A stretch of 64,000 bases of DNA from Candidatus Omnitrophota bacterium (GCA_041650835.1 JBAZKL010000002.1:602435-666434); one strand, 5' to 3'. Shown: positions 19,589 to 47,418, numbered from the stretch's first letter. The notes: a model not told the origin generated them from the letters alone. Program-made: numbers and translations.

Positions 19589-19590
19589 AT

Positions 19591-27639: not shown

Positions 27640-27644
27640 AGATA

Positions 27645-29612: not shown

Positions 29613-29619
29613 TTTTAGT

Positions 29620-30705
29620 TTAATTATTTAAACATTCATCGACATAAAGCATCGAATTATCCGCCAAGTTTACCTGCTTGGGTTCTTTTAATTCTTTCCC
29701 ATAGGCGTCAACGATGATATTGATCGTCGGCCGAAGCGGCAGTTCAGGATTCTCCCTGATCACTAAACCGATCTCTTTAGTGTTAAGCCTGACCAGAGTC
29801 CCCATAGGAAATACCCCGATGCGCTCGATCAAAAGCTTAATGACTTTATGGTCAAAACATGACTTATTCTTTAAAATCGTCTTTATCGTTTCCAAAGGGC
29901 TGAATTTCGCGCGGTACGGCCGTTTATGGATCATCGCTTCATAAACATCGACTAATCCGACAATGCGCGCATATTCACCGATCTGCTCATCCTTAAGGCC
30001 GGCAGGATACCCTGAGCCGTCCATACGTTCATGTTCCTGGCGCACAACATCGAAGACCCGTTGGCTGAACGGGCCTCCTGACTGCTGCAGTATCTCAATT
30101 CCCGATAACGGGTGTTCTTTAACACGTTTGCTTTCTTCCTGAGATAAACAATCCGGCTTATTGATGACAGCCAAACATTTCACCATACCCAGGTCATGCA
30201 GCAAAGAGGCAACGCCCAATTCAATTACCCCGGGTTGATCAAAACGCAGCGCTATCCCCAGCTCAAGGGAAATAACGCACACATTGACCGTATGATAATA
30301 AAAATAATCCTGAACTTGAGGATAATCGATCAAAGCGCAGCGCAATAGATTCTTGCTGCCCCCTTGCAGTAAACCAACCGCTTTCTCGACCAACGGGGTG
30401 AGGCCGGCAAGAAATCCTTCTTCATATTTTAAATCGGGATTATACAATACGCGGGCTGCCGCTACAAGCTGGTCATACAACTCCACGGCCTTGGCGCCGT
30501 TAATAGAATTCAATTCTTTATGGACAGCCGCGGAAATATTGATCTTATGCGAATGAGAAGCTTGATTTTGACAGGAAGGTTCTTCACGGCCTTGCGGATG
30601 AGGGCCTCGAGCGCCTCCAAGGGGGTCCTGGCCTAACCCTAATTCAGCATCAAGGTCCTTCTTGGGCTCTTTAAGTTTTTTAAAGATATCTGATATTCTA
30701 AGCAT
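29620..30705 (-). CDS. HD-GYP domain phosphohydrolase (probable c-di-GMP phosphodiesterase)
   Basis: HDLGM and HERMDGSGYP match the HD and GYP motifs. Confidence 0.8.
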   Translation of the reverse strand: MLRISDIFKKLKEPKKDLDAELGLGQDPLGGARGPHPQGREEPSCQNQASHSHKINISAAVHKELNSINGAKAVELYDQLVAAARVLYNPDLKYEEGFLAGLTPLVEKAVGLLQGGSKNLLRCALIDYPQVQDYFYYHTVNVCVISLELGIALRFDQPGVIELGVASLLHDLGMVKCLAVINKPDCLSQEESKRVKEHPLSGIEILQQSGGPFSQRVFDVVRQEHERMDGSGYPAGLKDEQIGEYARIVGLVDVYEAMIHKRPYRAKFSPLETIKTILKNKSCFDHKVIKLLIERIGVFPMGTLVRLNTKEIGLVIRENPELPLRPTINIIVDAYGKELKEPKQVNLADNSMLYVDECLNN

Positions 30706-31540
30706 TCGTTTTGTCTACCGGGAGTTGATTGCTGAAATTCGAGGCTTCGAGGTCATCATTAATCTTGGTAATTGTTTTCTTCTCGATAACGCCCATTTCA
30801 CTGCCAAAACCAACCAATAATGCCAGATCGCAAATATTATTGATCCGCCGCGGTATGCCCCCGGAACAAAGGAATATTTCTTTATACGCGTCTTCTTCAA
30901 AGATCTGCTTTATTGCTCCCGCGATATTTAAACGGTGCAGGATATATTCTTTGACTTCCTGCTCGCTTAATGCCTTCAAATGGAAACGCACCGCCATGCG
31001 CTGGCTCAACTGAGGTAAATTCGATACCGCGTAATTGAGCTCCGGCTGGCCTAACAAAATAAGCGTCAAAAGAAAAGCGTTATCAAGTTGAAAATTCAAT
31101 AAAAGCCGCAATTCCTCGAATATCTCTTTGCTCTCGATAGCCTGGGCTTCATCGATCATGATCACGCTATGCTTGCCCATACTATGGTTTGAATACAGGA
31201 TCTTATGCAGGCAATGAAAAAGGTCGATCTTGGTCGCCAACTCTTCTCCCCCCAGCTGATGGATGATCTCACGGATGAATTCCAGACCGGACAGCCTCGG
31301 GTTAAGGATAAAAACCGACTGGTATAAATGCTCCTGTTGTAATTCCTGCCAGAGTATACGGTTCAAAAGGGTCTTCCCGCTGCCGTATTCTCCGGTAATT
31401 AAACCCGCCCCCTTACGTTCGCGCACCACATACAGCATACGCGCCAAAGCCTCTTTATGCTGCTGGGAATAATACACGAACCGCGGGTCAGGAGTATTCT
31501 CAAAGGGTTTCTCTTTTAACCCCCAATATGCTTCATACAT
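30698..31540 (-). CDS. ExeA/GspA/MshM-like AAA+ ATPase
   Basis: Walker A is GEYGSGKT and Walker B is VIMIDEAQ. The size and layout match the ExeA family. Confidence 0.75.
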   Translation of the reverse strand: MYEAYWGLKEKPFENTPDPRFVYYSQQHKEALARMLYVVRERKGAGLITGEYGSGKTLLNRILWQELQQEHLYQSVFILNPRLSGLEFIREIIHQLGGEELATKIDLFHCLHKILYSNHSMGKHSVIMIDEAQAIESKEIFEELRLLLNFQLDNAFLLTLILLGQPELNYAVSNLPQLSQRMAVRFHLKALSEQEVKEYILHRLNIAGAIKQIFEEDAYKEIFLCSGGIPRRINNICDLALLVGFGSEMGVIEKKTITKINDDLEASNFSNQLPVDKTNA

Positions 31541-31543
31541 AGT

Positions 31544-32128
31544 TTAGTTCCCGCTGACCGGGATGCCTTTTTTGCTGATGCTGACAAACGAATAATCTGT
31601 TTTGGTCTTTTCGTCGATCTGATAGCTCAAGACCCCGCGCATACCCTGCATATCCGGGGACATTTCACCGCGCCAGAAACAAACTCCTGTTTTCTCGGAA
31701 GTCTGCATAGTCTCCCAGACCACCTGATTTTCATCCTGGACCGTCAAAGTATAATTGGTGGAAGGAAATCCCTTTTTCCCGAAATTCATGAAAGAAACCT
31801 GGCTGTTCTTAAAGGAAACCGTTTCTTTTTCTTTCTTACCAGCACCGGTAAGCGGAGATAACTCGATAAGCCATTCGGTATTGTTCAATTCACCGCGCTT
31901 TTTCTCAGCCATCGCCTTTTGGTTCCTGTCAGCCGCTTCCTTGGCTTTATCAACTTTCTTTTCCACGGCTTTTTTGGCTGCGGGAGCAGCTTTTACTGCA
32001 GCAGCCGAAGACTCAACCTGAGGCGCAGCATCATCGGCCTTTTTCTTATTCCCGAACCAGGCCTGCGCGTCATTCATATAAATAAACATAAAACTTAAAA
32101 CCACCGTCACTGCTAACCCTTTTTTCAT
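31544..32128 (-). CDS. Secreted protein of unknown function with an Ala/Lys-rich low-complexity region
   Basis: A signal peptide is followed by an AAPQVESSAAAVKAAPAAKKAVEKKVDKAKE linker and a C-terminal domain. Confidence 0.5.
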   Translation of the reverse strand: MKKGLAVTVVLSFMFIYMNDAQAWFGNKKKADDAAPQVESSAAAVKAAPAAKKAVEKKVDKAKEAADRNQKAMAEKKRGELNNTEWLIELSPLTGAGKKEKETVSFKNSQVSFMNFGKKGFPSTNYTLTVQDENQVVWETMQTSEKTGVCFWRGEMSPDMQGMRGVLSYQIDEKTKTDYSFVSISKKGIPVSGN

Positions 32129-32150
32129 TTCTTCCTCCTTTAATGAAAGA

Positions 32151-33137
32151 TTAATTCATGGGCTTTTTACCTTCCCATGTCTGCCATGTTAAAATATACT
32201 TCTTGACCCAGTCGACATCTTTATCGCTGCCTTTGGTTAAACTTAAATATTTCCTGAAATGCTCTATTGCCTTCGGACGATTAACCAGGTATTCCGAATA
32301 AATGTAGCCGATATTATAATGAGACGAGGCATCTTCGGGATTTAATTCCGTTGATTTTTCGAATTCCGCGATCGCGCGCGAGAATTCCTTATTTTTGGTA
32401 TAGAAAACACCCAGGTTATAATGCATCAGCGCTGTTTCTTTTATCAAGACCTTATTTTCCCGCGCGATCTCAGCGATACGCGCCGGCAGAGCTTCCGCTT
32501 TTTTCTCAAGTGAACGGTTCTTGATGAGCGCTTCCTCATACCTGCGCTTGAATTCTTTTACCTGGCGGCGGTAGACTTCGATCTGCGCGTCACTATCGAG
32601 CTTACGCTCCTCATAACGCTTGAGTTGAGCTTCAATACCCCCGTATTTCCTCTGTAGATCTTTTTTATCATTTTGTAACCGGCCGATCTCTTTTCTTGTC
32701 TCAGGGACAACCTTATATTCAACCTCAAGTTTATCAACAGCGCTCTCCAGAGATTGTTTTTCCTGCGCCAGCAGGGTTACCCGGTCTTCCAGGTCTTTCA
32801 CGCCTTTTTTTAAAGCGGCATTTTCTTCTTCTAAGACCCTGGATGCCTCTGCCGACTGGGACTTATTCGTGTCATATGCTGATTGCAGCTTCATATTTTC
32901 TTCCTGCAATTGCTTGATCTTCACGTCTACCTCTAAATATTTCGCTTTATACTCAAGAAGATTCTTCGACTGCGCCAGGACATTATCCCGGTCAGCGACA
33001 ACTTTTTCGTATTCTTTTTTCAGCTTATCGTATTCTGTTTTAAGGTTATCCTGCGCGTAAACCCGCGGTATGAAACCGATGACCATGGCCACAATAAATA
33101 AGGTTTTTATTTTCATAGGTAAGGGATTATGCTCCAT
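32151..33137 (-). CDS. Secreted coiled-coil protein with C-terminal TPR repeats. It is a paralog of the C-terminus of the 35153-38230 protein.
   Basis: It has a signal peptide and coiled coil. The C-terminus HYNLGVFY...SHYNIGYIYSE...KAIEHFRKYLSL matches the C-terminus of the 1025-aa protein. Confidence 0.6.
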   Translation of the reverse strand: MEHNPLPMKIKTLFIVAMVIGFIPRVYAQDNLKTEYDKLKKEYEKVVADRDNVLAQSKNLLEYKAKYLEVDVKIKQLQEENMKLQSAYDTNKSQSAEASRVLEEENAALKKGVKDLEDRVTLLAQEKQSLESAVDKLEVEYKVVPETRKEIGRLQNDKKDLQRKYGGIEAQLKRYEERKLDSDAQIEVYRRQVKEFKRRYEEALIKNRSLEKKAEALPARIAEIARENKVLIKETALMHYNLGVFYTKNKEFSRAIAEFEKSTELNPEDASSHYNIGYIYSEYLVNRPKAIEHFRKYLSLTKGSDKDVDWVKKYILTWQTWEGKKPMN

Positions 33138-33138
33138 G

Positions 33139-34932
33139 TTAAAAATTCTTGACCGGTTTTAATACCGGCAAACGATCCATATCCTGTTTTACCGGTTGAT
33201 AATTCTGGTACGCCTTCAACTCTACCGGTGTATTTTCCTCGGAAAAATCCTGGTATTTCTGGTACTCTTTATCCAAGGTATGGCCAAAATCACGGTCATA
33301 ACCGGTAACAAGTTCATCGCCTTCCACGACATGAGGGGTCAATAAGATCACCAATTCCGCCCGCACCTTCTTATTGGTTTTCGTCTTAAAAGCCTCACCG
33401 ATGAACGGGATCTTGCTTAAAAACGGCGTGCCGCTGGAATCAAGGGTCTTTTCTTCTTTACTTAAACCGCCGATCAAGATACTGGAACCGTCCTTGACCA
33501 TAACGATCGTTTCCGCGGTCGATGTGTCGATTATCGGGATCTTATTCTTACTGGAAGTTTCCAGGAATGAGATAACGCTTGAGATCTCCGGTTTTATTTT
33601 AACGGTAACGAAACCATCATCATTGATCGTAGGAGTGACCATCATTTGTATACCGACATCAACATAGGTGACTGCTTCCGATACGGTCGTGCTTGTCTGC
33701 GTTTGAGTAGTTGTCGTCGTTATATAGGCCTGCCGCTCGCCGACATGGATCTTGGCTTCCTGATTGTTGACCACGGCCAGCTTCGGGTTGGAAAGTATGC
33801 GCGTTTCTCCTAAAGTCTGCAAATAATGGATAATGACGTCAAAATCATTCTTGCCGACAACGCCCAAATGGATCTCTTCGGTCGAGGTTTTCGGAGTCGA
33901 GGAGGAAAAATCAGTTGTCGTCCCGGAAAAGGGGTACGCACCGACATATCCGGTATCCTCAACGACCTCCTTGCGGGAACGCCAGGTATTGCTCGTTGCC
34001 GTCGTAGACGGGCCGACTGAACTCAAAGGAGTCGATCCAAGATACGTAGTCCCCCATCTCTTTCCGAGGTTAAACAAGCCCTCCCATTCAACGCCGGAAC
34101 CGACGGAATCGGTCAGTTTGACCTGGATGATCTTTGCGTCAATAAGTATCTGCTTGGTCTTTTTATCCAGGCTCTGTATTAAACGGCTGATATCCTCCAT
34201 GCGCTCAGGCAGGGTTTGCACGATAACCTGGTTTGTCCGCTCATCAGCTTTAATAGAGCCTAATTTCTTTACATCGATTTGAGGCTTTAATTGCTCTTCA
34301 ATGTCCTTGGCGCGGGCGTATTTCAGGTCAAAGACCATAATAACATTCTTTTTCTCCATCGCCTGCAAGGTGGCCTCCATGCTCTTGACACGCTCCGCGG
34401 TATCCATAACCAGGATAACCCCGGAATCCTGGTCCAGGAGTATCTTACCTATCTCGCTCTTAAGCGTGTTCAAAAGATTATACGCCTGTTCGGGGATCGC
34501 GTATTTTAGATTAAAGACGCGGGTGACCCTGGTATCAATAAAATTCTTGCCGTAGCGGGCCTTATATTCATTCTCGGTCATTACATTATAAATATCGCCT
34601 TTTTTCTCATACGCCAGGTTATTACTGCGCAAGATAATGTCAAAAACATCCTTGGCAGGCACATTATCGACCATAAGCGATGTCCGGCCGGAAACTTCTT
34701 TTGTAGGGATGATATTCAAACTCGCTTTTGTGGCGATATATTTCAATGCTTCGATTATTTCCATGTCCCGCAGGTCTAAAGAGATCGTTACCTTGGGAAA
34801 ATCATCGTTTATGGCAGCTGCTTCCTTTTGAAAAGGGAGCTTATCCGCGCGCTGTAACCCCTGCGCGTAAGAATTCATTATCCCGCAAAAAACGGGAATA
34901 ATCAATAAAGAATACACCTTAAATAATTTCAT
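33139..34932 (-). CDS. Secretin (GspD/PilQ/MshL family)
   Basis: Secretin_N repeats are followed by the C-terminal secretin domain ...TAETIVMVKDGSSILIGGL...PFLSKIPFIGEAF...LVILLTPHVV. Confidence 0.85.
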   Translation of the reverse strand: MKLFKVYSLLIIPVFCGIMNSYAQGLQRADKLPFQKEAAAINDDFPKVTISLDLRDMEIIEALKYIATKASLNIIPTKEVSGRTSLMVDNVPAKDVFDIILRSNNLAYEKKGDIYNVMTENEYKARYGKNFIDTRVTRVFNLKYAIPEQAYNLLNTLKSEIGKILLDQDSGVILVMDTAERVKSMEATLQAMEKKNVIMVFDLKYARAKDIEEQLKPQIDVKKLGSIKADERTNQVIVQTLPERMEDISRLIQSLDKKTKQILIDAKIIQVKLTDSVGSGVEWEGLFNLGKRWGTTYLGSTPLSSVGPSTTATSNTWRSRKEVVEDTGYVGAYPFSGTTTDFSSSTPKTSTEEIHLGVVGKNDFDVIIHYLQTLGETRILSNPKLAVVNNQEAKIHVGERQAYITTTTTQTQTSTTVSEAVTYVDVGIQMMVTPTINDDGFVTVKIKPEISSVISFLETSSKNKIPIIDTSTAETIVMVKDGSSILIGGLSKEEKTLDSSGTPFLSKIPFIGEAFKTKTNKKVRAELVILLTPHVVEGDELVTGYDRDFGHTLDKEYQKYQDFSEENTPVELKAYQNYQPVKQDMDRLPVLKPVKNF

Positions 34933-34935
34933 ATC

Positions 34936-35163
34936 TTATATGCCTAAGAGGCGCTTACGGATCAACATAAGCGAATAGCCTTCTTTGGAAAGTGCAATGA
35001 TCTGTTTAACGCGTTTATGAGCCAGGAGGCGTTCGTAATAACGCACATTACCTTTCTTAAAGGCCAGGCTCAACAGCCCCGCATCGCAATAACGGTTTAT
35101 CGTCTGTGAAGATATACCGTATAACTGTGATAACTCTTTTACCGTGATAAATTTATCTGGCAT
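34936..35163 (-). CDS. Small MerR/excisionase-type HTH DNA-binding protein. It is a paralog of the 41632-41871 protein.
   Basis: The 75-aa protein reads ITVKELSQLYGISSQTINRYCDAGLL...KKGNVRYY...EGYSL, close to the other small HTH protein. Confidence 0.65.
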   Translation of the reverse strand: MPDKFITVKELSQLYGISSQTINRYCDAGLLSLAFKKGNVRYYERLLAHKRVKQIIALSKEGYSLMLIRKRLLGI

Positions 35164-38100
35164 TTTTTAGTTCCTGATCCGCGGTCTCCCACGTAAGCAC
35201 GAACCTTCTGACCTGTTCGGCTTCGGGGTCATTGGGCGCTAACGCTAAATATTTCCTGAAATGGACGATCGCCTTCTTACGGTCATTTAATTGCTCGCTG
35301 AAGATAACGCCTAAATTATAATGGCTCTCAGCGTCATCCGGTTTTAATTCCAAGACTTTCTGGAATTCCTTGACCGCCTTATCATATTCCTGCTTCTGGG
35401 CATACATGACCCCCAGGTTATACCGTAACACGGTATTTTCCTGAGGCAATTCAGCGTACCGGTTGGTCAGTGTCTCATGCCTGTCCTTGGCCTCTTCGGT
35501 GATCTTGAAACGCTGCGTTAACTGGTCATAATTATTTTTCAAATTCTGATAATCCTCCATTAATTCCTTATATTGCTTTTCCACCTCTTCTTTATTCTTG
35601 ACCCGCTGTTCATAATCCTGGAGCTTGCGGTTATATTCTTTTGTTTTCTCAAGTAATTCGTTTTTCGAAGCCTCCAAGTCAGCCACTTTCTTAGTCATTG
35701 CGGGAGGCGGCATTCCGCCCATCTTTTCTTTATCTTTTTCTAACCGGGTGAACTGATTTTGTAAATCATTGACCTGTTCGGAAACAGCCACGTATTGATT
35801 TTTCAAGAAAGTATTTTGCTCAAGCAGCTTCTTATTTTCATCCGTTAAAAGATTCTTTTGAGCTTCCAATTCTTTAAGCTGGGAGAGATTCTGTTTTTGC
35901 TGGTTCAAGAGAGTGCTTTTTTCCTGCACGAGCTGATAAGAGAGGTCCTGAGAACTGCGCAGATCAGACTGGACTTTATTAAGCGAATCGGTAAGTGAAC
36001 GCGTATCCGCTTCTTGGAGGGATTTATATTCCCTGAACTTGTCATTAAGCTGCGCCCACTCGCCCTCTTTATGCGCTTTCACCTGCGCGATCTCGGCATC
36101 AAGGAGCGCCCTATCCTGCTCCTTATTGGTTTTTAACTTTGTGATCTGATCAAAAAGCCCGTCCCGCCCCCGTTTAAGCTCATCACATTCCTGCCGAAGC
36201 TGGGCCTTCTCTTTTTCATTCTGGGATATTTGCGCCAGCAATTGCTCGGTCTTTTGCTGGTAACTTTGGGCTTGGGCCGCTGAACCTGTTTTGAGATTTT
36301 CCGCGTCCGCAAGCCTGACCATGGCGCGCGCTAACTGTTCGGAGATCCTGGTGCGCTCCTCAAGGATAGTCAGGTTTTTCTGCATACAATCCTGATACTG
36401 CTCTTCTAAAACCGCGTTCGCGCTCTCTAACGCTTTGGTCTTAGCGCTCAACACATTCTCCTGGCTCTGATAAACCGCTTTTTCCTGGATCAATTGCCCG
36501 GAAAGCTCCTGCGCGACCTTCAGGTCCTTTTGCAGCTTACTTATCTGTTGCGCAAAAGTATTATCGCTCTGGGCTTCAGAGAGAGAAGCTTCTTTTTCCC
36601 TGCTTTCTTTGAGCTGCGCCGATAGGACAGTAATGCTGTTTTTAAGCTCATCGGCCTGTTTCTGGGCGGTTAAACGCTCCTTTTCCAACTGTTCGGATCT
36701 ATTGCGCAGCTGCGCTAATTCCTGCGATGAAATATTTTTCTGTTTACTCGTAAGGGCTTCCTGCCGCGAGAGATTGCGCTCCGCTTCAAGATGAACCAGC
36801 TTCTGGCGTAACTGCGCGATATCCCGGTCAGACCCCAGTTGCTTCTTTAACTCCTCAGCCTGCGCCGCTATCTGGTCCCGTTCAGATTCAACCTTAGCTA
36901 ACTTTGCGCGTAACTGATCCAGATCCTTGGGCGAAGACAGCTGTTTCTTTAACGCCGCCCCTTCATCCCGCAGATGGTCGCGCTCTTCCTCCAATTTCAT
37001 CACCTTGTTACGCAACACGGAAACTTCTTTTTCCGAACCCAGCTGTTTCTTTAAAACTTCAACCTGCTTCTGTAAAACATTACGGTCTTCTTCTATTGCC
37101 GCGAATTTAGAGCGCACCCGCGCGATATCATCCTCAGAGCCTATCTGCGATCTCACCGTTTTAACTTCAGACTGCAAAGAATTACGTTCTTCTTCTAATT
37201 GAGCGAATTTCTCCCGCAATTTTTCAATTTCTTTTTGAGAGACCAGTTGTTTTTTAAGGCCTGCTGCTTCCTGCTGAAGCCGGTTACGCTCTTCCTCAAG
37301 CTTTGAGGCCTTATCACGCAGAGCGTCAAAATCACGTTTCGCGATGATCTCTTTTTTCAGGCGCGCGGCATCTTCTTTTAACGTATCGCGTTCTTCTTCG
37401 ACGAGCGACAATCTTTCGCGAAGTTCTTTTGCTTCCTGAGAAGCAACCGACAGCTCCTTAAAACGGATATCTTTTTCTTTCAAATCATCCGTCAACTGCC
37501 GGCGCTCTTCCTGGAGTTCCGATACCCGCAGGCGTATCTGGTCAATATCTTTTTGCGCGACGATCTTCCTTTTCAGCGAATTTGACTCTTCCTGCAGCTG
37601 GACGCGCTCGGTCACCGCGTCTGCCAATTTATCACGCAGCGCCTCGAGTTCTTTCTGCGGCACCTGTTTTTTCTTAAGGGCGTTTAATTTAACATTAAGC
37701 TCATTGCGCTCTAATTCGACGCCGGTGAGCTTATCGCGCAGCTGTTCAATCTCTTTCCTTAACGACTGGACCTCCCCTCCTAAGACAACCCTGACTGTTT
37801 CAAGGTCACTGAGCTGCCCGGAAACATCCTTTTGTTTACTTTGAATAAATTCTTTCTCTTGGGTCAAGCGGTTGATCAATTCCTGAAAGCTCTTAAAATC
37901 ATCCTGAAGCTTGAATATCTTCTCATTCAAAGACCTGTTTTCCTGTTCCTTCAACCCGCAGAGCTCCTTAAGCTGTAAAAGCGCCTGCTGAGAGAGCAAA
38001 AGCTCATCCTTTGCTTTTTTAAGCAAATTAATAAGCTTGTCTTTGCTCAAGGCTGAATCAACGCTATCAAGATCGGCCGTGATCGCCTTGAGATCGTCTT

Positions 38101-38230
38101 TTGCCTGTGCCCGATCAAACGGTCCAGGAAAAAACGCCATAGCTGCGGATAATAGAATACTCATGCTCAAAAGCACTCCCCGTGAACCAGGTTTTCTCTT
38201 CATAGAGTCTCCGCTTAAAATTGAAATCAC
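35153..38230 (-). CDS. Giant secreted coiled-coil protein with about ten 33-aa tandem repeats and C-terminal TPR
   Basis: The 1025-aa ORF has a signal peptide and repeats of the pattern LRxKxxxLEEERNxLxxExxxLKKQLxSxKE. The C-terminal TPR is paralogous to the 32151-33137 protein. Confidence 0.65.
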   Translation of the reverse strand: MISILSGDSMKRKPGSRGVLLSMSILLSAAMAFFPGPFDRAQAKDDLKAITADLDSVDSALSKDKLINLLKKAKDELLLSQQALLQLKELCGLKEQENRSLNEKIFKLQDDFKSFQELINRLTQEKEFIQSKQKDVSGQLSDLETVRVVLGGEVQSLRKEIEQLRDKLTGVELERNELNVKLNALKKKQVPQKELEALRDKLADAVTERVQLQEESNSLKRKIVAQKDIDQIRLRVSELQEERRQLTDDLKEKDIRFKELSVASQEAKELRERLSLVEEERDTLKEDAARLKKEIIAKRDFDALRDKASKLEEERNRLQQEAAGLKKQLVSQKEIEKLREKFAQLEEERNSLQSEVKTVRSQIGSEDDIARVRSKFAAIEEDRNVLQKQVEVLKKQLGSEKEVSVLRNKVMKLEEERDHLRDEGAALKKQLSSPKDLDQLRAKLAKVESERDQIAAQAEELKKQLGSDRDIAQLRQKLVHLEAERNLSRQEALTSKQKNISSQELAQLRNRSEQLEKERLTAQKQADELKNSITVLSAQLKESREKEASLSEAQSDNTFAQQISKLQKDLKVAQELSGQLIQEKAVYQSQENVLSAKTKALESANAVLEEQYQDCMQKNLTILEERTRISEQLARAMVRLADAENLKTGSAAQAQSYQQKTEQLLAQISQNEKEKAQLRQECDELKRGRDGLFDQITKLKTNKEQDRALLDAEIAQVKAHKEGEWAQLNDKFREYKSLQEADTRSLTDSLNKVQSDLRSSQDLSYQLVQEKSTLLNQQKQNLSQLKELEAQKNLLTDENKKLLEQNTFLKNQYVAVSEQVNDLQNQFTRLEKDKEKMGGMPPPAMTKKVADLEASKNELLEKTKEYNRKLQDYEQRVKNKEEVEKQYKELMEDYQNLKNNYDQLTQRFKITEEAKDRHETLTNRYAELPQENTVLRYNLGVMYAQKQEYDKAVKEFQKVLELKPDDAESHYNLGVIFSEQLNDRKKAIVHFRKYLALAPNDPEAEQVRRFVLTWETADQELKNAR
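36730..37740 (-). repeat. Intragenic tandem repeat with a period of about 99 bp (about 10 diverged units) that encodes the 33-aa coiled-coil repeats
   Basis: The unit recurs about every 99-102 bp, with the cagctgtttctttaa/ccagttgttttttaa motif at about 36838, 36941, 37040, 37242 and 37343. Confidence 0.6.
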
Positions 38231-40044
38231 CGTGAAAGCGATTTAGGCCCTTTCATTTCCAATCTTTGTTTCTCAACCGGCATAAAAACCGGAGCCGCCG
38301 GTTCAACAAGTTCTTCTTTCTTCAATGCGCGGTAATCTTTCGGCGGCTTGACTGCGCCACCGCCGACTTCCTTCAAAACAGGGCCGGCTACCAAAACTTC
38401 TCCGGAGATCATTTTTGGCGTCAGAATGATCAATAACTCCGTCTTTTCTTTTGACTTCGATTTTACACTGAAGAAGCGGCCAAGTAAAGGAATATCTCCC
38501 AATACCGGAGTCTGCTGCGCGGTAGAACTTTCCGTTTCTTTACGCAGCCCCCCGATAATAACGGTTGAACCGTCTTTAACCATAACGGTGGTTTCCGCAA
38601 GCGACGTATCGATGATAGGGATCTGATTTTTAGTCGGAGTAATCAGCATCTCCAGGACGCTGTTGATCTCAGCTTTTATTTTCAGGGTGATGAAGCCTTC
38701 ATCGTTTATGATCGGAACGACGGAAATGATAACGCCGACGTCGACAAAGGTCACCTGTTCGGAAACAGTATTGGTAGTCTGTCCGGTTGTCGTCGTTGTC
38801 GTCACATAGGCTTCTTTCTGTCCGACATGGATCTTCGCTTCCTGATTATTAATTATGGCGAGTTTTGGATTGGAAATAACCTTGGTCTTTCCTTTTGTCT
38901 GCAAATACTTAATGACCGTATCAAAATCATGCTTACCGACAACCCCCAGGTGCATTTCTTCGGTCCCGATCTTCGAACTGCTGGAAGAATAATTGGTTGT
39001 CGTACCGCTAAAAGGATATGAACCTACGTTTCCCACGGTATCCCATACCGAACTGCGTGAACGCCAGGTATCGGTTGACGCCTGCACCGACGCAAACGGC
39101 GTAGACCCCAGGTAACTCATGCCGAATTGCCGGCCTAAATCAAATAATCCTTCCCACTGTATTCCTTCGCTGGTATCATCCGATAATTTCACATTGACGA
39201 TATTGATATCAACAATGATCTCCTTTGTCTTCTGGTCAAGGGCTTTGATCAGCTTTTCGATCTGATCCATACGCTTCGGAAGAGTCTGCACGATTAATTG
39301 ATTACCCCGCTCATCCGCCTTGATCAAGCCGACCTTCTTGGAATCAAGCTGATTCTTCAAGGCTTCTTCCACATCCTTAGCCTTGGCGTAATTCAATTTG
39401 AAGACTTTAACGGTATTTTTTTCCTCAAAATCCTTCAACACCTTATCCATAATTTCGATGCGAGCGGCGGAATCGATCACTAATACATTACCGGATTCCG
39501 GATCGACTAATACCCTGCCGATCTCGCTTTTAAGCATATCCAGCAAGCTGAAAGCCTGTTCCGGAACGATGTAATTCAAATAAAAGACCTTTACCTGGCG
39601 GATATCGGCAAAATTCTTCCCGTAAAGCACCCGGTATTCTTCCTGAGTCATGACATTATAGATCTCCCCCTGCTTATCGTACGCGAGATTATTACTGCGA
39701 AGCATAAGATCGAAGACATCCTGGATAGGGGCATTCTCGACCATAAGCGTTACCCTGCCTATGACGGCCTTTGTCGTAACAATATTCATTCCGGCCTTCA
39801 TAGACAAAAACTTTAACGCATCAACAACATCGATATTTCTTAAATCAAGGGAGATCTTCCCCGCGAGGACAGTTACCGGAGGAGCGACCATGGGTTGCAG
39901 GAGCGTCGCTTGAGCTAATTGTATTAATTTATTATCGGCTGAGCCCGCAGGCTCAGCATGAAGGCCGGGAGTAACGCAAAGGCTTACGCAGGCAAAGGAA
40001 GGGATGAAAACAAGGTATTTTAAGAACTTTTTCTTTAATATCAT
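38227..40044 (-). CDS. Secretin (second paralog)
   Basis: LAETTVMVKDGSTVIIGGL...PVLGDIPLLGRFF...LLIILTPKMI is the secretin signature, preceded by N-terminal Secretin_N-type domains. Confidence 0.85.
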   Translation of the reverse strand: MILKKKFLKYLVFIPSFACVSLCVTPGLHAEPAGSADNKLIQLAQATLLQPMVAPPVTVLAGKISLDLRNIDVVDALKFLSMKAGMNIVTTKAVIGRVTLMVENAPIQDVFDLMLRSNNLAYDKQGEIYNVMTQEEYRVLYGKNFADIRQVKVFYLNYIVPEQAFSLLDMLKSEIGRVLVDPESGNVLVIDSAARIEIMDKVLKDFEEKNTVKVFKLNYAKAKDVEEALKNQLDSKKVGLIKADERGNQLIVQTLPKRMDQIEKLIKALDQKTKEIIVDINIVNVKLSDDTSEGIQWEGLFDLGRQFGMSYLGSTPFASVQASTDTWRSRSSVWDTVGNVGSYPFSGTTTNYSSSSSKIGTEEMHLGVVGKHDFDTVIKYLQTKGKTKVISNPKLAIINNQEAKIHVGQKEAYVTTTTTTGQTTNTVSEQVTFVDVGVIISVVPIINDEGFITLKIKAEINSVLEMLITPTKNQIPIIDTSLAETTVMVKDGSTVIIGGLRKETESSTAQQTPVLGDIPLLGRFFSVKSKSKEKTELLIILTPKMISGEVLVAGPVLKEVGGGAVKPPKDYRALKKEELVEPAAPVFMPVEKQRLEMKGPKSLSR

Positions 40045-40637
40045 CGTAATTCGATCAATTCTTCTCCATAGCGCAAAATTATCTTATCTTTAAATACACT
40101 TTCTACTTTAAGATCTCCGATCATCTGCCCTTTTTTGACGAAAGAAGTGCGCGCGGACTTAACGTCTTCTATCATGATATCGGGATTATCCGACCAGGAG
40201 ATCCCGACGAGCCTTAAATTTTGCATTACTTCAGCCGCTTTAGAAGAAATGACCTCATTGACCGATGAAGATGAATTAAGCCCCATTTTGAATATATCCC
40301 TGCTTTGTGTTTTTCCTATATAATAGGCGAGATCTTTTAACCGGGGCGTCTCTTTTCTGACTTGTGCGTCTTTCACTAACTCAGGAGCCGCCCATTTTCC
40401 CGGGTTGATCTTCTTTATACCCTGGGAAAGGCTATACACAAAATAAACGGACAAGAGAATAACACATAATAAAAGAACAAGATTGATTACTTTAATATCG
40501 ACTTCATTCTGCTTTTTCTTGAAGAGCTTCAGTATATTTTCTTTGAGAGCAGAAAAAGCCGAACCCAATTGCTCCGGTGAAAAAACGCCTAAAATATTCG
40601 TTTTTACCGCCATAATGCCTTGCCGCAAGCCGCTCAA
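40041..40637 (-). CDS. GspC/PilP-like secretin-interacting protein
   Basis: A single TM helix is followed by a C-terminal beta-sandwich-like segment LRLVGISWS...FVKKGQMIGDLKVESVFKDKIILRYGEELIEL, which resembles the GspC HR and PilP C-domains. Confidence 0.5.
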   Translation of the reverse strand: MSGLRQGIMAVKTNILGVFSPEQLGSAFSALKENILKLFKKKQNEVDIKVINLVLLLCVILLSVYFVYSLSQGIKKINPGKWAAPELVKDAQVRKETPRLKDLAYYIGKTQSRDIFKMGLNSSSSVNEVISSKAAEVMQNLRLVGISWSDNPDIMIEDVKSARTSFVKKGQMIGDLKVESVFKDKIILRYGEELIELR

Positions 40638-41623
40638 TTGGCCTTTCCAGGCGGAGATCCGGCCTCAAGAAATTGAGGATATACCAGGATCTTTGCTTCA
40701 ACCTTTAATTTCTCCAGCCAAACATTCAACTCATCGTATTTCTTTATCATCTCTACCTGCTTAAAATACGAATCCCGCAGTTTCGGGAAATCCTCTTTAA
40801 GCGCAAGCCTCTTTTTCAAGATACGGATCACACCATACCCCTTATATACGGGGATAGGAGGATAGACGGTATTGACCTCTCGCTCGAGCATTTTATATAA
40901 ATCATCCTTGGGGATCTTCCACATATTAATAAGGAACTCAAGGGAAACGAACCCCGGATGCTTGGCGAATTTCGGGTCTTTCTTGGCTTCGGCATCCCAA
41001 AGAGCAGGATCGGCCATTTTAGCATAAAAAGCATCCGCGTCTTTTTTCTCGTCAAACTGTACCAGCTCCAGTTCCAGAGTATTGTATTCATTCAAGAACT
41101 CCTGGTAGGCTTCTTCCTCGGTGACTGCCGGCTTAAACGTCTCCAGGACCTGCTGGCGCAATTTTTCTAATTGTATCAAATGGCGCATTTGATTTTCAAA
41201 AAGCTCGGAATTCCCGCCGGTTTTCTCTTTGAGCCATTTATCGTATTCAGCTTTATCTTTTTGCCAATCGAAGGTTACCTTTTCGCTTTTAAGCGTCTTG
41301 GAGACTTCCTGTTCCACCTCTTCCCTGCTGACAGTGATATTACGGCGGAACGCTTCGTAAGAAAGAAGCAACTGCTCCCATGTCCTATCCTCAAACTCCA
41401 CTTCAGTCTGAGGAGGCTGCCCCCAGCGCGTCCCAAAAACACCGATCACTCTTTTAATAAAATAATAATTACCCGCGGTGACCTTAACGCCGTAACCGCT
41501 CAATTCCCCGGCAAATTCCTCCGGCTTCCCCTGGATTTGCTGGCAAAGGGCTTGCCTGCAATCATACATAGGCCCGGCGCACGCAAAGATTAAAATAAAA
41601 ATTATGTCGAGATACTTCCTCAT
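40634..41623 (-). CDS. Periplasmic or lipoprotein-like protein of unknown function
   Basis: It has a signal peptide with a possible lipobox cysteine and a helical soluble domain (SurA-N-like at best). Confidence 0.45.
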   Translation of the reverse strand: MRKYLDIIFILIFACAGPMYDCRQALCQQIQGKPEEFAGELSGYGVKVTAGNYYFIKRVIGVFGTRWGQPPQTEVEFEDRTWEQLLLSYEAFRRNITVSREEVEQEVSKTLKSEKVTFDWQKDKAEYDKWLKEKTGGNSELFENQMRHLIQLEKLRQQVLETFKPAVTEEEAYQEFLNEYNTLELELVQFDEKKDADAFYAKMADPALWDAEAKKDPKFAKHPGFVSLEFLINMWKIPKDDLYKMLEREVNTVYPPIPVYKGYGVIRILKKRLALKEDFPKLRDSYFKQVEMIKKYDELNVWLEKLKVEAKILVYPQFLEAGSPPGKAN

Positions 41624-41631
41624 AAAACCTT

Positions 41632-41871
41632 TTAAACTCCTATTAGCCTTTTTTTGATCAGGCGCAGCGAATAACCTTCACGCGACAGCCGGGTGATCAA
41701 AGCAATGCGCTGCTTCACCAACTTAGAATCATAAAAGCGTATATTCCCCTTTTTAAAAGCAAGCGGCAGCAAGCCAAAATCGGTATAATGATTTACCGTC
41801 TGGTAAGTCAAATGATACCTGTTCATGATCTCTTTCGCCGAAACTAATGTATTTTCGTCTGCCATACTCAC
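41632..41871 (-). CDS. Small MerR/excisionase-type HTH DNA-binding protein
   Basis: The 79-aa protein reads SAKEIMNRYHLTYQTVNHYTDFGLLPLAFKKGNIRFY...EGYSLRLIKKRLIGV. Confidence 0.65.
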   Translation of the reverse strand: MSMADENTLVSAKEIMNRYHLTYQTVNHYTDFGLLPLAFKKGNIRFYDSKLVKQRIALITRLSREGYSLRLIKKRLIGV

Positions 41872-41905
41872 CTATTCACGCGCATTTCACTTGTGATAAC
41901 CTTTG

Positions 41906-41949
41906 TATATATAAGACTTATTGTACCTACCATAAGTCTTATATATACT
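41906..41949. promoter_or_regulatory. 16-bp perfect inverted-repeat candidate operator
   Basis: The two arms, gtatatataagactta and taagtcttatatatac, are separated by a 12-nt spacer and overlap the predicted -10 element. Confidence 0.6.
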
Positions 41950-41970
41950 ACAGATTCCGGGCTTGTCAAT
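41940..41970 (-). promoter_or_regulatory. Sigma70-like promoter for the HTH-secretin operon
   Basis: On the minus strand the -35 is TTGACA (41964-41969), the spacer is 16-17 nt, and the -10 is TATATA/TATAAT-like (about 41942-41947). It lies about 70 nt upstream of the ATG. Confidence 0.55.
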
Positions 41971-42111
41971 AGTTTTTTTAATATTTTTTAGGGAGGCAGA
42001 TGTGAGCGGCTGCGGCACGCCATTGCCGGTCACCCATGACCGCAGCCCGGGTTTAAACCCGGGCTACGTGACATAAACGAGCATCATTGCAAAACGATCT
42101 TTTTAACAAGC

Positions 42112-42143
42112 AAAAAACCGGGCTTATACGCAATAAGGCCCGG
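42112..42143 (-). terminator. Rho-independent terminator after the response-regulator gene
   Basis: On the minus strand the stem CCGGGCCUUAU/AUAAGCCCGG is followed by UUUUUU. Confidence 0.5.
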
Positions 42144-42261
42144 CCTTAAGCTGTGACCTTTTAAGTTACAGATAAGTCCGGGCCTTGAATATCCTGCCCG
42201 TCTTTCCAGTCCGCGCAAAGCAGACGGCAAAGAACCTTGCTTTAGGCGCCGATAACTGAGA

Positions 42262-42651
42262 TCACTTCTTCAGCTTCTTATGCGTGCGTAAAGCAGCCTC
42301 AAGAAGGGATAGCCCCTCCTGAAAATCAGTACCCTTGTAAAACACGCCTGAAACACCGTAACCCATTGCTTCATTGACGCGCTTATCATCGACAAAAGCG
42401 CTGATAAAGATCACCGGCACATTCGCGTTGAATTTTCTGATCCTTTTTAACGATTCTACGCCGTCCATAACCGGCATATTCAGGTCCAGGAAAATAATAT
42501 CGGGTGACTGTTCCTTCACCATGACCAAAGCGTTCTCCCCGTTAGAAGCAGAAATAACGCTATAGCCTTTTGATTGCAGCCAAAACGTCATCACCTGGCG
42601 GAAATCAGATTCATCATCAACCACTAAAACTTTAATATCATTATTTTCCAT
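42262..42651 (-). CDS. Stand-alone response-regulator receiver domain protein (CheY-like)
   Basis: KVLVVDDESDFRQ...DIIFLDLNMPVMDG carries the phospho-acceptor Asp. Confidence 0.85.
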   Translation of the reverse strand: MENNDIKVLVVDDESDFRQVMTFWLQSKGYSVISASNGENALVMVKEQSPDIIFLDLNMPVMDGVESLKRIRKFNANVPVIFISAFVDDKRVNEAMGYGVSGVFYKGTDFQEGLSLLEAALRTHKKLKK

Positions 42652-44719
42652 CCGTAACCTCCATCATAGGCATTCCCGAGAAAGGAAGCGTAAAAGTAAA
42701 GACCGTCCCCTCCCCCCGCTTGCTCTCAACCCGGATTTTTCCGCCATGCAACTCTACGATCTCTTTGGCTACCGCTAAACCAATACCGGTGCCTCCCACA
42801 TCAGCCGTGGACTTCTCCCCTATCTGATAGAATTTATCAAAAACCTTTTTGAGGTTTTGCTCTTCGATCCCGATCCCGTTATCTTTAACCAGGACATAGC
42901 ACTCTTGTTTTTCCGGCGAGGCTTTGGCTTCTACGGTGATCAAACCGTTTTGAGGCGTAAATTTGATTGAATTACCGATAAGATTATTTAAGACCTGGAT
43001 GATCCTGTTAGCGTCTATATTGATTTCAGGAAGGCCCTCCTGAACGGACTTACGTATTTCTATCGCTTTGGTCTTTGCCCAGATATTCAGGCTCTCGGTT
43101 GAATCGCCGATCACCTTATCGATCCGGCACAAAGAACGCTTGATCCGCATCTGGCCCGCCTCAAGCTTGGAAAGATCCAGCAGGTCATTGATCAAAAGGC
43201 TCAAACGCTTGAGGTTGCGTTCCGCGATGGAAAGGAATTGCTCCTGAGGCTCCGATATCTCTCCCGCGGTTTTCTCCAATATCAATGAAATTGACTTCTG
43301 AATAGCTACCAGCGGCGTGCGCAATTCATGCGAGACATTGGCGACAAAATTCGACTTTATCTGGTCAAGCTCTTTCTGCTTAGTGACATCATTGAGTATC
43401 GTCACCATACCGACGGTCTTGCCAAAGCTGTCCTCGACAACCGCGGAACTTGTGCGCAGGATCTTTTTTGTCGTTTCATTGCTGCCGACTAATTCGATAT
43501 CCTTCTGCATGACTTCATCTTTGGCGGTAGGGATATCTTTTACCACGGTCAAGAGATGGTCATCTTTAACCAGGTCTTTGATCGGAGTCCCTGAATATTG
43601 ATGATTAACTCCCAGCATTGTTTCCGCCTGGGGGTTCATTAACAGTATTTTACCCTGCGGATCAACGACCACTAAACCATCAGCCATATGGTGGATAATA
43701 TTATCAATACGGTCCTTCTCGCTCTGAACGACTTTACTGTGTTTTTTCACCTGCTCCAACTCAAGGTTGAAGCGGTCCCGCTCCTCCTGGATCCGGCGAA
43801 GCTTTACCCTTAACTCCTCATTTTCCTTCTTAAGGCTCTCTGATTCTCCCGTACCCGTAGCCGAACCCGTACCCGGCCCCCCGCCCGAACCTTCACCCGC
43901 GCCCCCTCCCCCGCCCGCAGCCGGACCGCGCCCCTTCTTCACCGGGCGGGCGATCTCATCCTGGATCTTATTCACCAGCGCTTCAACTTCCTTCGACGGA
44001 CAGCCGTAGCCGATCAACGCTTCTTTTAAAACCTGCAGCGTATCAGTTTTATCTCTTGAAGCCACAGAGATGAATTTTTTAAACAGGCTTTTCGTTGCCG
44101 GGCTTATTTTATTCTTTTCTTTAAACTCAGCGCTCATCATAGTAAAAAGCTCTTTTTCTATCCCGCCGACATCCTGCGATTTAACTGCCTTGCCTGACGA
44201 TAATTCTTTTATTTTATCTTTTAAAGCGTTCCAAGCGTTTAATTCGGCGCCCAAGAGCGCTTCTTTATCTTTATTGATCTTAATATAGGAATACTGGTCT
44301 GCTTTAATATGCTGAATATTCTTGTCGGCGAATATTTTATTGATATCCCCCAGGCCCTTTAACTGCGCGGCGTCCAAAAGCAATAACTGCAGAAAATCTT
44401 CGACCTCCTGTTCAGTGATTCCTCTCTGAAAAGTCATATTCTCTATGTCGATTTTTTTAAGATACGGAAGGATATCCTTGGCAAGCCCGGGATTTTTATC
44501 GTTCAAAGGCTCCCCATCAATAAGCACCTTATTGTCCTGTGACAAGCTTAAGCTTAACGCTTCTTTACCGGAGAATATCTCGGATATCACCGCATAGACA
44601 TTTGTAATCGATTCCACCACTATAGGATGTTTCGCGGGATAAATAGAGATCTTTCGGATAGCGGTTACAAGGTTTGAAATGAATTGAGAGGGTTTATTTT
44701 GAGGGGATTGATTCTCCAT
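42641..44719 (-). CDS. Sensor histidine kinase with an N-terminal soluble domain, a Gly-rich linker, PAS, HisKA and HATPase_c
   Basis: The H-box is HELRTPL and the G-box is GGTGIGLAVAKEIVELHGGKI. PAS follows a GGGGGAGEGSGGGPGTGSATGTG linker. Confidence 0.85.
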   Translation of the reverse strand: MENQSPQNKPSQFISNLVTAIRKISIYPAKHPIVVESITNVYAVISEIFSGKEALSLSLSQDNKVLIDGEPLNDKNPGLAKDILPYLKKIDIENMTFQRGITEQEVEDFLQLLLLDAAQLKGLGDINKIFADKNIQHIKADQYSYIKINKDKEALLGAELNAWNALKDKIKELSSGKAVKSQDVGGIEKELFTMMSAEFKEKNKISPATKSLFKKFISVASRDKTDTLQVLKEALIGYGCPSKEVEALVNKIQDEIARPVKKGRGPAAGGGGGAGEGSGGGPGTGSATGTGESESLKKENEELRVKLRRIQEERDRFNLELEQVKKHSKVVQSEKDRIDNIIHHMADGLVVVDPQGKILLMNPQAETMLGVNHQYSGTPIKDLVKDDHLLTVVKDIPTAKDEVMQKDIELVGSNETTKKILRTSSAVVEDSFGKTVGMVTILNDVTKQKELDQIKSNFVANVSHELRTPLVAIQKSISLILEKTAGEISEPQEQFLSIAERNLKRLSLLINDLLDLSKLEAGQMRIKRSLCRIDKVIGDSTESLNIWAKTKAIEIRKSVQEGLPEINIDANRIIQVLNNLIGNSIKFTPQNGLITVEAKASPEKQECYVLVKDNGIGIEEQNLKKVFDKFYQIGEKSTADVGGTGIGLAVAKEIVELHGGKIRVESKRGEGTVFTFTLPFSGMPMMEVTDGK

Positions 44720-44787
44720 GAAATAGATTATATAGCAGCAGTCTATACTTTACAACAAGAAAATAGTACGTCCGGGATGATACAGAG

Positions 44788-44930
44788 CAAGTCTAAAGTT
44801 TAAAGTCTAAATATCCAAGGAAGGTTCAAGACTAAAGGCTAAATTTTAAAATTACCTGCCGGCCGGCAGGCAGGAACCTTTAACCTTCAAACTTCCTTTG
44901 TTATTTATACTTTGGCCTTTAAAATTAAAA
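44788..44930. repeat. AT-rich palindromic intergenic repeat of about 140 bp, family copy 1
   Basis: The arms are built from taaag/ctttaa words with aaggaagg and cttccttt cores, around a GC palindromic centre cctgccggccggcagg. The other three copies are at 54235, 57385 and 61960. Confidence 0.65.
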
Positions 44931-44991
44931 TGAGATACGGGAAGAAATCAAAATAATGCCATGAGGATAGTACCCCTGAGAAAACTGGGGT

Positions 44992-46185
44992 TTACAGCCT
45001 GACGCGGTCGACCTTCTCTTGCAGCTTCTTTGAGATATCGGAAAGCTGCACCGCGGCTCCCGCGATTTCTTCGGTAGCGGCTGTCTGCTCTTCGGCAACA
45101 GCAGTAACCTCTTCCGAGGAACTGGCGGTTTCCTGCACCGCAGAGGCAATACGCTCTACCTGGGACGTAATAACATTGACGCCCAAGGCAATTTCATCGA
45201 ACTGTTTAGCGACAGTCGCGATCAATACCGCCCCTACCTGTATCCGCTGTTTGGTTTCCCCGGCGGTAGTTGTTGCCTGTACGATCGATTCCTGGACCTG
45301 CTGAACGATTTTCTTTATTTCCTGGACCGACTCAGCGGAGTTTTCAGCCAGCTTTCGCACTTCATCGGCAACTACGGCAAATCCCACCCCTGCCTCACCG
45401 GCGCGCGCGGCTTCAATAGCGGCGTTTAACGCCAAAAGATTTGTCTGTTCGGCTATCTTAGTGATCATATTGACCATTTTACTGATCTGTTCGGAATATT
45501 CTGAAACCCGCTGCATGATCTTAGTATTGAAGTCGGCGTGGGACTGGAGCTGTTTTACCTGTTCTGTAAACTTATCGATATTTTCTTTGCCCTTTTCGGT
45601 GAAACTATGCGTCTCCTTGGCGCTATTCAACGCCTTCAGGGAACTGCCTGAAATATCCGAGATCGATTGCGAGATCAGATAAACAGTTTCGGTAAACTGG
45701 CTGACGCGCTCTTTAAACGAGTTGGAAGTGCTTGCCAAAACACCGGAATGGTTGGCGACGACCATGGATGACTCCTGCAAGTGCTGGATTAAATCCCTTA
45801 AATACTCCAAGATGCGGTTAGTTGTTTTCCCTAAAGACCTTAATAATTCATCGTCTACAGCCTCATTTGCTACTACCGTAAAATCGCCTTCGCTGACACT
45901 CTTTAAGGTCTTAAAGAAATCGGTCAAATAACACGCCATATTCATGGAATTATTATGAAGCCCGTCTTTTTCTGAACTTATATTACCCAACTCCCGGGCA
46001 GCGTCCTTTACCCAATTAAAAACTAAAATAAAACATACCCCTGCCAGGGCTGAAACAACACGGACCACGAGATCAACCTTCCCCAGATTTATTACGAGCA
46101 GTAAAAGAAAACCGACAAAAAGAAAGAATTGCGCTCCGATCTTGATTTTCTGCGGCGCGGGGATGGTCCGGAAATTCATGCCCAT
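44992..46185 (-). CDS. Methyl-accepting chemotaxis protein (2 TM helices, minimal periplasmic loop)
   Basis: The signalling domain reads [32 protein letters not shown]. Confidence 0.85.
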
Positions 46186-47414: not shown

Positions 47415-47418
47415 TCGA

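Follow-up and report, generated by a model that had tools for sequence, protein, structure and literature searches.

What is a repeat-built coiled-coil protein of about a thousand residues doing directly behind a secretin gene? The question is raised by a 64,000-nucleotide stretch of DNA from a Candidatus Omnitrophota bacterium, which we will call the window (all coordinates are positions in it, and all features given below lie on its minus strand). The open reading frame (ORF) 35153..38230 follows the gene of one secretin, A, and encodes a long coiled-coil protein ending in tetratricopeptide repeats (TPRs); a second secretin, B, is followed by the gene of a short paralog with the same type of end. 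The first-pass annotation of this DNA described a secreted, rod-like coiled coil of 1025 residues with about ten 33-residue (99-bp) tandem repeats and proposed for it the role of a molecular ruler or periplasmic spacer associated with the secretins. Our analysis suggests that the long protein is probably a TPR accessory of a secretin, laid out like CpoB and belonging to an uncharacterised phylum-wide cluster, and that the ruler is not the best explanation of its rod.

The exported rod and its 34-residue units

The ORF is real when read from a GTG at 38230, which gives 1025 residues and overlaps the stop codon of secretin A, but the product is likely the shorter one of 1016 residues from an ATG at 38203, nine codons past the GTG (35153..38203, stop included). 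We prefer this start because the ATG is preceded by a GGAG 5 nt upstream and the ortholog P0001 (81% identical, 1016 residues) is called from the same Met; residues are nonetheless numbered here from the GTG. Residues 10–43 (38102..38203) read as a predicted Sec-type signal peptide, MKRKPGSRG-VLLSMSILLSAAMAFF-PGPFDRAQA/KDD (the stroke marks the predicted cleavage), and the same layout of n-region, h-region and AxA site can be read in all 18 of 18 long orthologs. Export by Sec, as assumed at first pass, is most likely on these grounds. Neither this signal peptide (AQA/K) nor that of the short paralog (YAQ/D) contains a lipobox cysteine.

Behind a conserved head the exported protein carries an array of eleven 34-residue units (aa 164–541; 36608..37741), starting at residues 164, 198, 232, 270, 304, 338, 372, 406, 440, 474 and 508. 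Ten of them are clear and one, unit 3, is degenerate and has a 4-residue insertion. The consensus is LRxKlaxLEEERnxLqxeaxxLKKq[il]xSxk[de][il]xq, with R2, E11 and R12 almost or fully invariant, so that the repeated motif recognised at first pass is real, but its period is 34 residues (102 bp) and not 33 residues (99 bp), and there are eleven copies. Chance does not explain the repeats: the BLOSUM62 autocorrelation of aa 151–545 reaches 1.50 at lag 34, far beyond the maximum of 0.22 over all lags in 200 shuffles. The units align with each other at a mean identity of 32% in protein and 47% in DNA, the highest DNA identity between any two being 60%. At this divergence, which the first-pass annotation had rightly pointed out, Tandem Repeats Finder is expected to find no repeats in the DNA, and it reported none.

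The period also defines the kind of rod that is built, as 34 = 4 × 7 + 6, that is, four heptads and then a hexad linker. The register of a unit is a(32) d(1) a(5) d(8) a(12) d(15) a(19) d(22) e f g(25), followed by six linker residues (26–31) before the next a, and the linker has the form [IL]26-[GVS]27-S28-x29-[KR]30-[DE]31 (more loosely [IL]-[GVSI]-[SA]-x-[KR]-[DE]). The best heptad register drops by one with each successive unit (6, 5, 4, 3, 2, 1, 0) and in the array the hydrophobic periodicity has a sharp peak at 3.4 residues. Seven does not divide 34 evenly; the rod is segmented rather than a single smooth coiled coil, and the array is best described as 28-residue leucine-zipper blocks on six-residue non-heptad linkers, which together make up a jointed rod. 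We rejected a helical meander or solenoid on account of the hydrophobic stripe of the units, which is narrow (a/d), with charged e and g positions.

How many strands would such a rod have? The d positions are ~70% Leu, and a position 12 is an invariant Arg in the window's units and an Asn in those of the type found in a distant ortholog, L007 (L numbers denote orthologous loci). Of 40 g–e′ (+5) pairs (K4–E9, E11–x16, E18–K23, D31–R2′), 27 are attractive, 12 neutral and only one repulsive, compared to a background of 13% attractive among all i,i+5 pairs of the array. By the usual rules of thumb, Leu at d, Arg or Asn at a and charged g–e′ pairs go with parallel two-stranded coils, and from this pattern a parallel, in-register, two-stranded coiled coil appears most likely.

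The array is a part of a longer, nearly Pro-free rod. Residues 44–926 consist to 49% of Leu, Glu, Lys and Gln, with 0.6% Pro and 1.9% Gly; the best-register heptad score of the rod is 3.38, against 2.03 ± 0.85 in shuffles, and of its 28-residue windows 38% lie above the 95th percentile of shuffles and 22% above the 99th. The rod thus has the a/d heptad pattern of a canonical left-handed coiled coil, from which the array departs by one residue in every 34. The AlphaFold2 monomer model (from an alignment of two sequences) has pLDDT (predicted local distance difference test) 61 and pTM (predicted template modelling score) 0.28, and because of this low confidence we use it for helix boundaries only. 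It is all-helical over aa 63–926, with long predicted helices at 63–187, 502–645, 651–836 and 843–926, and the breaks predicted within the array (188–191, 299–300, 325–332, 362–365, 397–400, 431–434, 464–468 and 495–501) fall on the linkers. Heptad statistics, composition and model together uphold the first-pass description of a rod-like coiled coil, except that the rod is segmented and not smooth. About 864 helical residues at 0.1485 nm each would make it ~128 nm long (roughly 130 nm) if extended, of which the array alone would account for ~56 nm.

Around the array, the rod can be divided into four further segments. The N-terminal coiled-coil head (aa 44–163; 37742..38101) falls mostly within one predicted helix (63–187); it is 87–95% identical to close orthologs and its motif is still recognisable in distant ones. 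The central rod (aa 542–836; 35723..36607), spanned by the predicted helices 502–645 and 651–836, contains an old duplication of ~187 residues, marked by two copies of DLxxxQ[DE]LS[GY]QL[IV]QEK at aa 568–584 (36479..36529) and aa 755–771 (35918..35968), 187 residues apart. This motif is among the best-kept parts of the rod in distant orthologs, and the duplication is shared by most orthologs, with the lag of 187 recurring in many. A Gly/Pro hinge, MGGMPPPA (aa 837–844; 35699..35722), is the sole Pro cluster of the rod and coincides with a predicted helix break at 837–842. The last coiled-coil segment before the TPRs (aa 845–926; 35453..35698; predicted helix 843–926) is the best-conserved part of the rod, at 93% identity to orthologs and with a ratio of nonsynonymous to synonymous divergence (dN/dS) of 0.022 against L001 and 0.116 against L002.

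The rod ends in a C-terminal module of two TPRs and a capping helix (aa 933–1024; 35159..35434), identified by Pfam, by the paralog and by AlphaFold2. Over aa 937–980 PF00515 (TPR_1) scores 47.2 bits (cut-off 27.8) and PF13414 (TPR_11) 46.4 bits (cut-off 26.8); the predicted TPR helices span 933–962, 967–979 and 981–997, the capping helix 1004–1024, and a family-specific tail, F[RK]KYL...V..[FY][IV]LTW[EQ]T, completes the module. The short paralog, listed as 328 residues (32151..33137) and read by us as 321 residues from Met8 (32151..33116), ends in the same two TPRs and cap, 47% identical to those of the long protein over 108 residues (E 3e-30), so the shared C-terminus seen at first pass is genuine. 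Its layout is otherwise simpler: a signal peptide and two helices of ~105 residues, joined by a conserved YK[IV]VPET hinge. The AlphaFold2 model of this protein (56-sequence alignment, pLDDT 84) has helices at 25–130 and 137–241, so that each predicted arm would be ~15 nm long, which is compatible with the periplasm.

Pairing with secretins and rod length in relatives

Secretin A (38227..40044, 605 residues), directly upstream of the long gene, consists of STN/N0, two Secretin_N and Secretin domains; secretin B (33139..34932, 597 residues) stands in the same way upstream of the short paralog. The two are 54% identical and BLAST sorts their relatives cleanly into A and B classes. A locus scan with secretin A as query and one genome per species returned 22 Omnitrophota loci, and a profile of the shared C-terminus finds two genes in each sufficiently long locus, a long one after secretin A and a short one after secretin B. 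For both paralog pairs the order of secretin and then coiled-coil/TPR gene is kept in ~25 Omnitrophota loci, which bears out the association with secretins already suspected from the window. Since the secretins are 54% and the TPR ends 47% identical, the secretin and its coiled-coil/TPR partner were evidently duplicated as one module. The named relatives are Omnitrophota except for a few labels of metagenome-assembled genomes (MAGs): one Deltaproteobacteria, two Planctomycetales and one PVC-group.

Direct searches with the proteins give a more uneven picture. A word-index protein search with the full long protein returned one true ortholog and with its 107-residue C-terminus one fragment, and is too insensitive for this family. 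In a profile search with the C-terminus, the top 150 matches are mostly multi-TPR proteins, the true relatives being single-stretch matches of 313–425 residues. The short paralog is identical (100%) to P0154, an NCBI protein from a Candidatus Omnitrophota MAG, and has more than 400 homologs; the best 120 are 45–88% identical over almost the full length and, where full-length, measure 298–356 residues, with one outlier of 421, more than 100 homologs being about 305–356 residues long.

The length of the long protein, in contrast to that of its partners, varies 2.2-fold between orthologs (736, 756, 804, 806, 807, 955, 1022, 1025, 1034, 1133, 1134, 1154, 1175, 1179, 1200, 1230, 1282, 1300 and 1628 residues), while secretin A (592–612 residues), the GspC-like protein encoded before it and the short paralog are constant. 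Within the window's own clade the length is fixed: the window, L002, L001 and L031 align without gaps and have eleven units each, at 81–87% protein identity where computed, although the synonymous divergence (dS) in the array is 0.75–1.2. Against the next relatives, the shorter orthologs L004 (806 residues) and L005 (756 residues), all large gaps lie inside aa 165–549 of the window's protein, with the head (aa 60–164) and aa 550–1025 colinear, so that the number of repeats does change the length of the rod, as had been proposed.

Units were counted in relatives with a profile made from those of the window and L007, at a threshold of at least 8 bits, and the counts range from 0 to 12. The window has ten and the degenerate one, L007 and L029 have 12, L028 has 11, L011 and L008 have five, L009, L006 and L023 have four, L005 has three, L004, L012 and L030 have one or two, and L014, L016, L018 and L020–L022 have none. 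In L007 and L029 eight units are contiguous, at spacings of 34, 34, 34, 35, 34, 34 and 34; the copies in L004 and L005 are 35 residues long. Since 34-residue units recur in distant orthologs, the period appears to be old and retained over a long evolutionary distance. Another reading, in which the 34-residue array is confined to the window's clade and arose from a 35-residue unit, is ruled out by the 34-residue arrays of L007/L029, L009 and L011. In other lineages the rod is lengthened by unrelated repeats of 50, 76/152, 116/157, 132 and 140 residues (L006, aa ~520–700; L028, aa ~320–800; L016, L014 and L018), a pattern that indicates repeated and independent expansion.

Purifying selection acts over the whole long protein, with dN/dS of 0.04–0.06 in the head and TPR end and 0.11–0.13 in the array and central rod. 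An old protein repeat under selection, as envisaged at first pass, is consistent both with this value for the array and with eleven units free of indels in four relatives. Unit gain and loss together with the other repeats alter the length of the rod between lineages, and within a lineage the length appears fixed. This length does not follow that of a neighbouring membrane-anchored coiled-coil protein: in five genomes the pairs are 1016/655, 1016/651, 1200/569, 1282/557 and 955/591 residues, with no positive covariation.

Possible roles of the rod

What could such a protein do at a secretin? The known accessories of secretins are small lipoprotein pilotins, peptidoglycan-binding factors and hub proteins such as FimV. 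By architecture the long protein is closest to CpoB, and by context to the TPR secretin pilotins and FimV/HubP, but it falls outside all of these families. CpoB (YbgF) joins a coiled coil in the periplasm to a TPR domain, and the likeness (Sec export, an N-terminal oligomeric coiled coil and then a small C-terminal TPR module) is nearest for the short paralog. However, neither paralog matches the CpoB model (NCBIfam TIGR02795) at E ≤ 0.001, the rod of the long protein is repeat-built and far longer than the CpoB coiled coil, and the context is not tol-pal, the neighbours being genes for secretins, a GspC-like protein, an ExeA-like ATPase, an HD-GYP protein and OPX/PCP proteins (OPX, outer-membrane polysaccharide export; PCP, polysaccharide co-polymerase). 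The TPR proteins PilF/PilW, Tgl and TadD are secretin pilotins or assembly factors, encoded with a secretin and required for its multimerisation or outer-membrane targeting; the long protein shares with them the conserved adjacency to a secretin, and there are weak, sub-threshold matches to two of them (Tgl NF033762, 34.7 bits against a cut-off of 225; PilW TIGR02521, 23.3 bits for the short paralog against a cut-off of 154). Those are outer-membrane lipoproteins made almost entirely of TPRs, in contrast to the long protein with its two TPRs, its ~880-residue coiled coil and its signal peptide without a lipobox. FimV/HubP is a secretin-associated hub with TPR motifs and a long repeat-rich region of species-variable length, but also has a LysM domain, a transmembrane helix and cytoplasmic TPRs, none of which is present in the long protein. 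In exopolysaccharide loci AlgK, PelB, BcsC and PgaA are TPR-bearing periplasmic partners of outer-membrane channels; they have long TPR superhelices and β-barrel porins, where here there are a secretin and a coiled-coil spacer. The literature on Omnitrophota, secretins, PEP-CTERM and OPX yielded no paper describing this protein family or cluster.

Tentatively, and with slightly less conviction than doubt, we read the long protein as an accessory or tether dedicated to the secretin whose gene lies just upstream, because each secretin is kept with its own coiled-coil/TPR gene and was duplicated with it as a module. The exported rod would be parallel, in-register and probably two-stranded, with the conserved head at one end and the two TPRs and cap at the other. 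The TPR end would dock on the secretin and the rod and head would connect the channel to another envelope component. A candidate docking site is the C-terminal tail of the secretin, a stretch of ~55–60 residues that follows the secretin domain (38227..38400 in A, 33139..33320 in B), which is conserved within each class and specific to it (VF[IV]P...LxLKGxK in class A; DKEYQxY...YQxYP...[IL]KP.[RK]NF in class B). By analogy with S-domain/pilotin pairs and with peptide binding by TPRs, these tails could be S-domain-like binding sites.

Several points weigh against this reading. The docking site is a guess, and both AlphaFold2 runs are monomeric, the one of the long protein being also of the low confidence given above; the call of a dimer follows from rules of thumb applied to the sequence. 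The two-TPR module is close to generic consensus and therefore scarcely informative on specificity, and searches of the PDB by sequence and by fold with this module gave designed or generic TPRs only and no specific family. A classical lipoprotein pilotin is excluded by the missing lipobox. Finally, a rod of ~130 nm is too long to cross the periplasm and would have to fold back, lie along the membrane or exit the cell. If the reading is nevertheless true, exported coiled-coil rods with a minimal TPR end are a further type of secretin accessory, duplicated together with the secretin and present phylum-wide in the uncultivated Omnitrophota.

The problem of length would be removed if the protein leaves the cell. 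It could be the cargo of secretin A and form a surface fibre reaching ~100–200 nm outside, anchored at the channel by its TPRs and with the head as its distal tip, for example in adhesion, with a stalk whose length would be tuned lineage by lineage, perhaps to the thickness of the polysaccharide layer that adjacent genes produce. We consider this unlikely, though far from negligible, since an extended ~130 nm is far above the width of the periplasm and a variable, repeat-built stalk between conserved ends is characteristic of surface fibres in bacteria, trimeric autotransporters and M proteins among them; the unrelated repeats by which different lineages lengthened the rod, the GspC-like partner of secretin A, as known from type II systems that secrete folded proteins of the periplasm, and the polysaccharide export and synthesis genes adjoining the cluster would fit as well. 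However, neither the 64-kb window nor the conserved cluster contains a GspE, GspF, pilin or pseudopilin gene, cargo genes are seldom duplicated along with their channel, selection on the rod is purifying and shows no diversifying component, and the short paralog, which shares the TPR end and likewise follows a secretin, is of fixed length suited to the periplasm. Should the rod instead remain between the two membranes, or in the gap from the outer membrane to the cell wall, the number of repeats might set a distance at the secretin, which is the ruler or spacer of the first-pass annotation. In molecular rulers such as Lpp or the tape-measure-like FliK/YscP the length of the protein sets a physical dimension, and on this point the comparative data are mixed: the protein is exported and its gene adjoins the secretins, its length is strictly constant in four relatives although dS is near 1, and unit number accounts for the difference in length to L004 and L005, but across orthologs (736–1628 residues) the length varies 2.2-fold against a constant secretin A, GspC-like protein and short paralog. 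The extended rod is also roughly four to five times as long as a typical periplasm is wide, the six-residue linkers would make it jointed and not stiff, and the five genomes give no positive covariation with the membrane-anchored coiled-coil protein. For these reasons a simple periplasm-width ruler is unlikely and we judge the ruler or spacer of the first-pass annotation to be improbable. The short paralog, owing to its fixed length, is the better candidate for a dimension-constrained element.

A different question is whether the rod is a dimer at all. Insertion of six residues into a heptad frame forces β-layers in trimeric coiled coils (Hartmann et al. 2016, PMC4786415), with the consensus [aliphatic]-A-T-K-[polar]-[DE] (PMC4786415), and each hexad linker of the array might form such a layer, one per 34 residues. 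The arithmetic of the unit agrees with this, as 34 = 4 × 7 + 6 contains an insertion of the right size (2 or 6 residues), and so does the placement, the linker following g and the next core residue coming three positions past the putative layer, which is also the case for the hexads of T6 and Tcar0761; moreover the linker agrees with the consensus in residue type at five of six positions and the AlphaFold2 helices break there. The match is partial, however: the motif's fourth residue, Lys, is not kept in the linkers, units of the L007 type hold the 34-residue period without the G-S motif, and one hexad per 34 residues is an arrangement not described before. Leu at d and Arg or Asn at a look dimer-like, while all known β-layers are in trimers, and a trimeric α/β coiled coil therefore seems very improbable to us compared to the parallel dimer preferred above. 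Whichever form it takes, the array is a clean natural coiled coil of four heptads plus a hexad and a useful test object for how a one-residue loss of register is absorbed, in two or in three strands.

The conserved gene cluster

Both secretin modules are embedded in a cluster of thirteen genes whose order is conserved: a MerR-like gene, a ~327-residue protein, a ~200-residue protein, secretin A and the long coiled-coil/TPR protein, followed by a second MerR-like gene, secretin B and the short coiled-coil/TPR protein, and then by another ~200-residue protein, an AAA_22 ATPase, an HD-GYP protein, the membrane-anchored coiled-coil protein and a short OPX protein. The full order is seen in five more contigs, and polysaccharide export and synthesis genes adjoin the cluster. 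In the window, secretin A is preceded by a 198-residue membrane-anchored protein (40041..40637) with a C-terminal domain resembling the HR domain of GspC; a profile of 14 orthologs matches PDB 3OSS chain C (GspC HR domain) at E 3.1e-5, and secretin A would thus have an inner-membrane partner of the GspC type, for which this protein is the likely candidate. Between the two modules, a 75-residue MerR-like helix-turn-helix ORF (34936..35163) shares the final 11 nt of the long gene and lies ahead of secretin B. The same 75-residue MerR_1 gene is found in L001, L028, L029 and L030, and the other MerR-like gene heads the whole cluster in orthologous loci.

Downstream of the short paralog, the AAA_22 ATPase (30698..31540) resembles the ExeA/MshM-like XrtA-associated ATPase TIGR03015 (227.6 bits, under the cut-off of 324.5); the 64-kb window showed no exosortase or PEP-CTERM gene. 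The HD-GYP protein (29620..30705) follows, and then the membrane-anchored coiled-coil protein (27645..29612, 655 residues), which has an N-terminal membrane helix, measures 506–655 residues between genomes and always lies between the HD-GYP and OPX genes. The OPX protein (26743..27639, 298 residues) has a single TPR motif, then Poly_export and one SLBB domain, and its sequence contains neither a C-terminal outer-membrane helix nor a lipobox. It looks like a Class-3 OPX protein because it has only Poly_export and one SLBB domain.

Class-3 OPX proteins have no outer-membrane pore domain and require a separate porin (PMC12819527; PMC9601211), and which protein forms the outer-membrane pore in Class-3 OPX export is under active investigation (PMC9601211, PMC12819527). 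Among the genes of the conserved cluster none was recognised as coding for a Wzp-type porin, and one may speculate that a secretin fills the role of the porin here. More broadly, the long protein could be a part of an undescribed envelope machine found throughout the Omnitrophota, comprising the two secretin and coiled-coil/TPR modules, the GspC-like protein, the ExeA/MshM-like ATPase, the HD-GYP protein, the membrane-anchored coiled-coil protein and the Class-3-like OPX protein. In it the secretins would provide the missing outer-membrane pore for polysaccharide, or export the rod as a fibre, the coiled-coil/TPR proteins would be periplasmic or extracellular struts, and the 34-residue units would be a new jointed or β-layered coiled coil. 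We regard this combination as unlikely. The conserved neighbourhood does suggest that secretins are linked to polysaccharide export by Class-3 OPX proteins, which can be tested.

The secretin A module begins with a weakly SurA/PpiC-like protein (40634..41623), for which all matches are sub-threshold, and a canonical SurA-like gene lies 13 kb away (54410..55411). A [NiFe] hydrogenase cluster is found at 46.9–52.2 kb, with a large Fe-S/flavoprotein-like ORF beside it. All substantial ORFs examined are on the minus strand, and the GC skew is negative through 1..64000.

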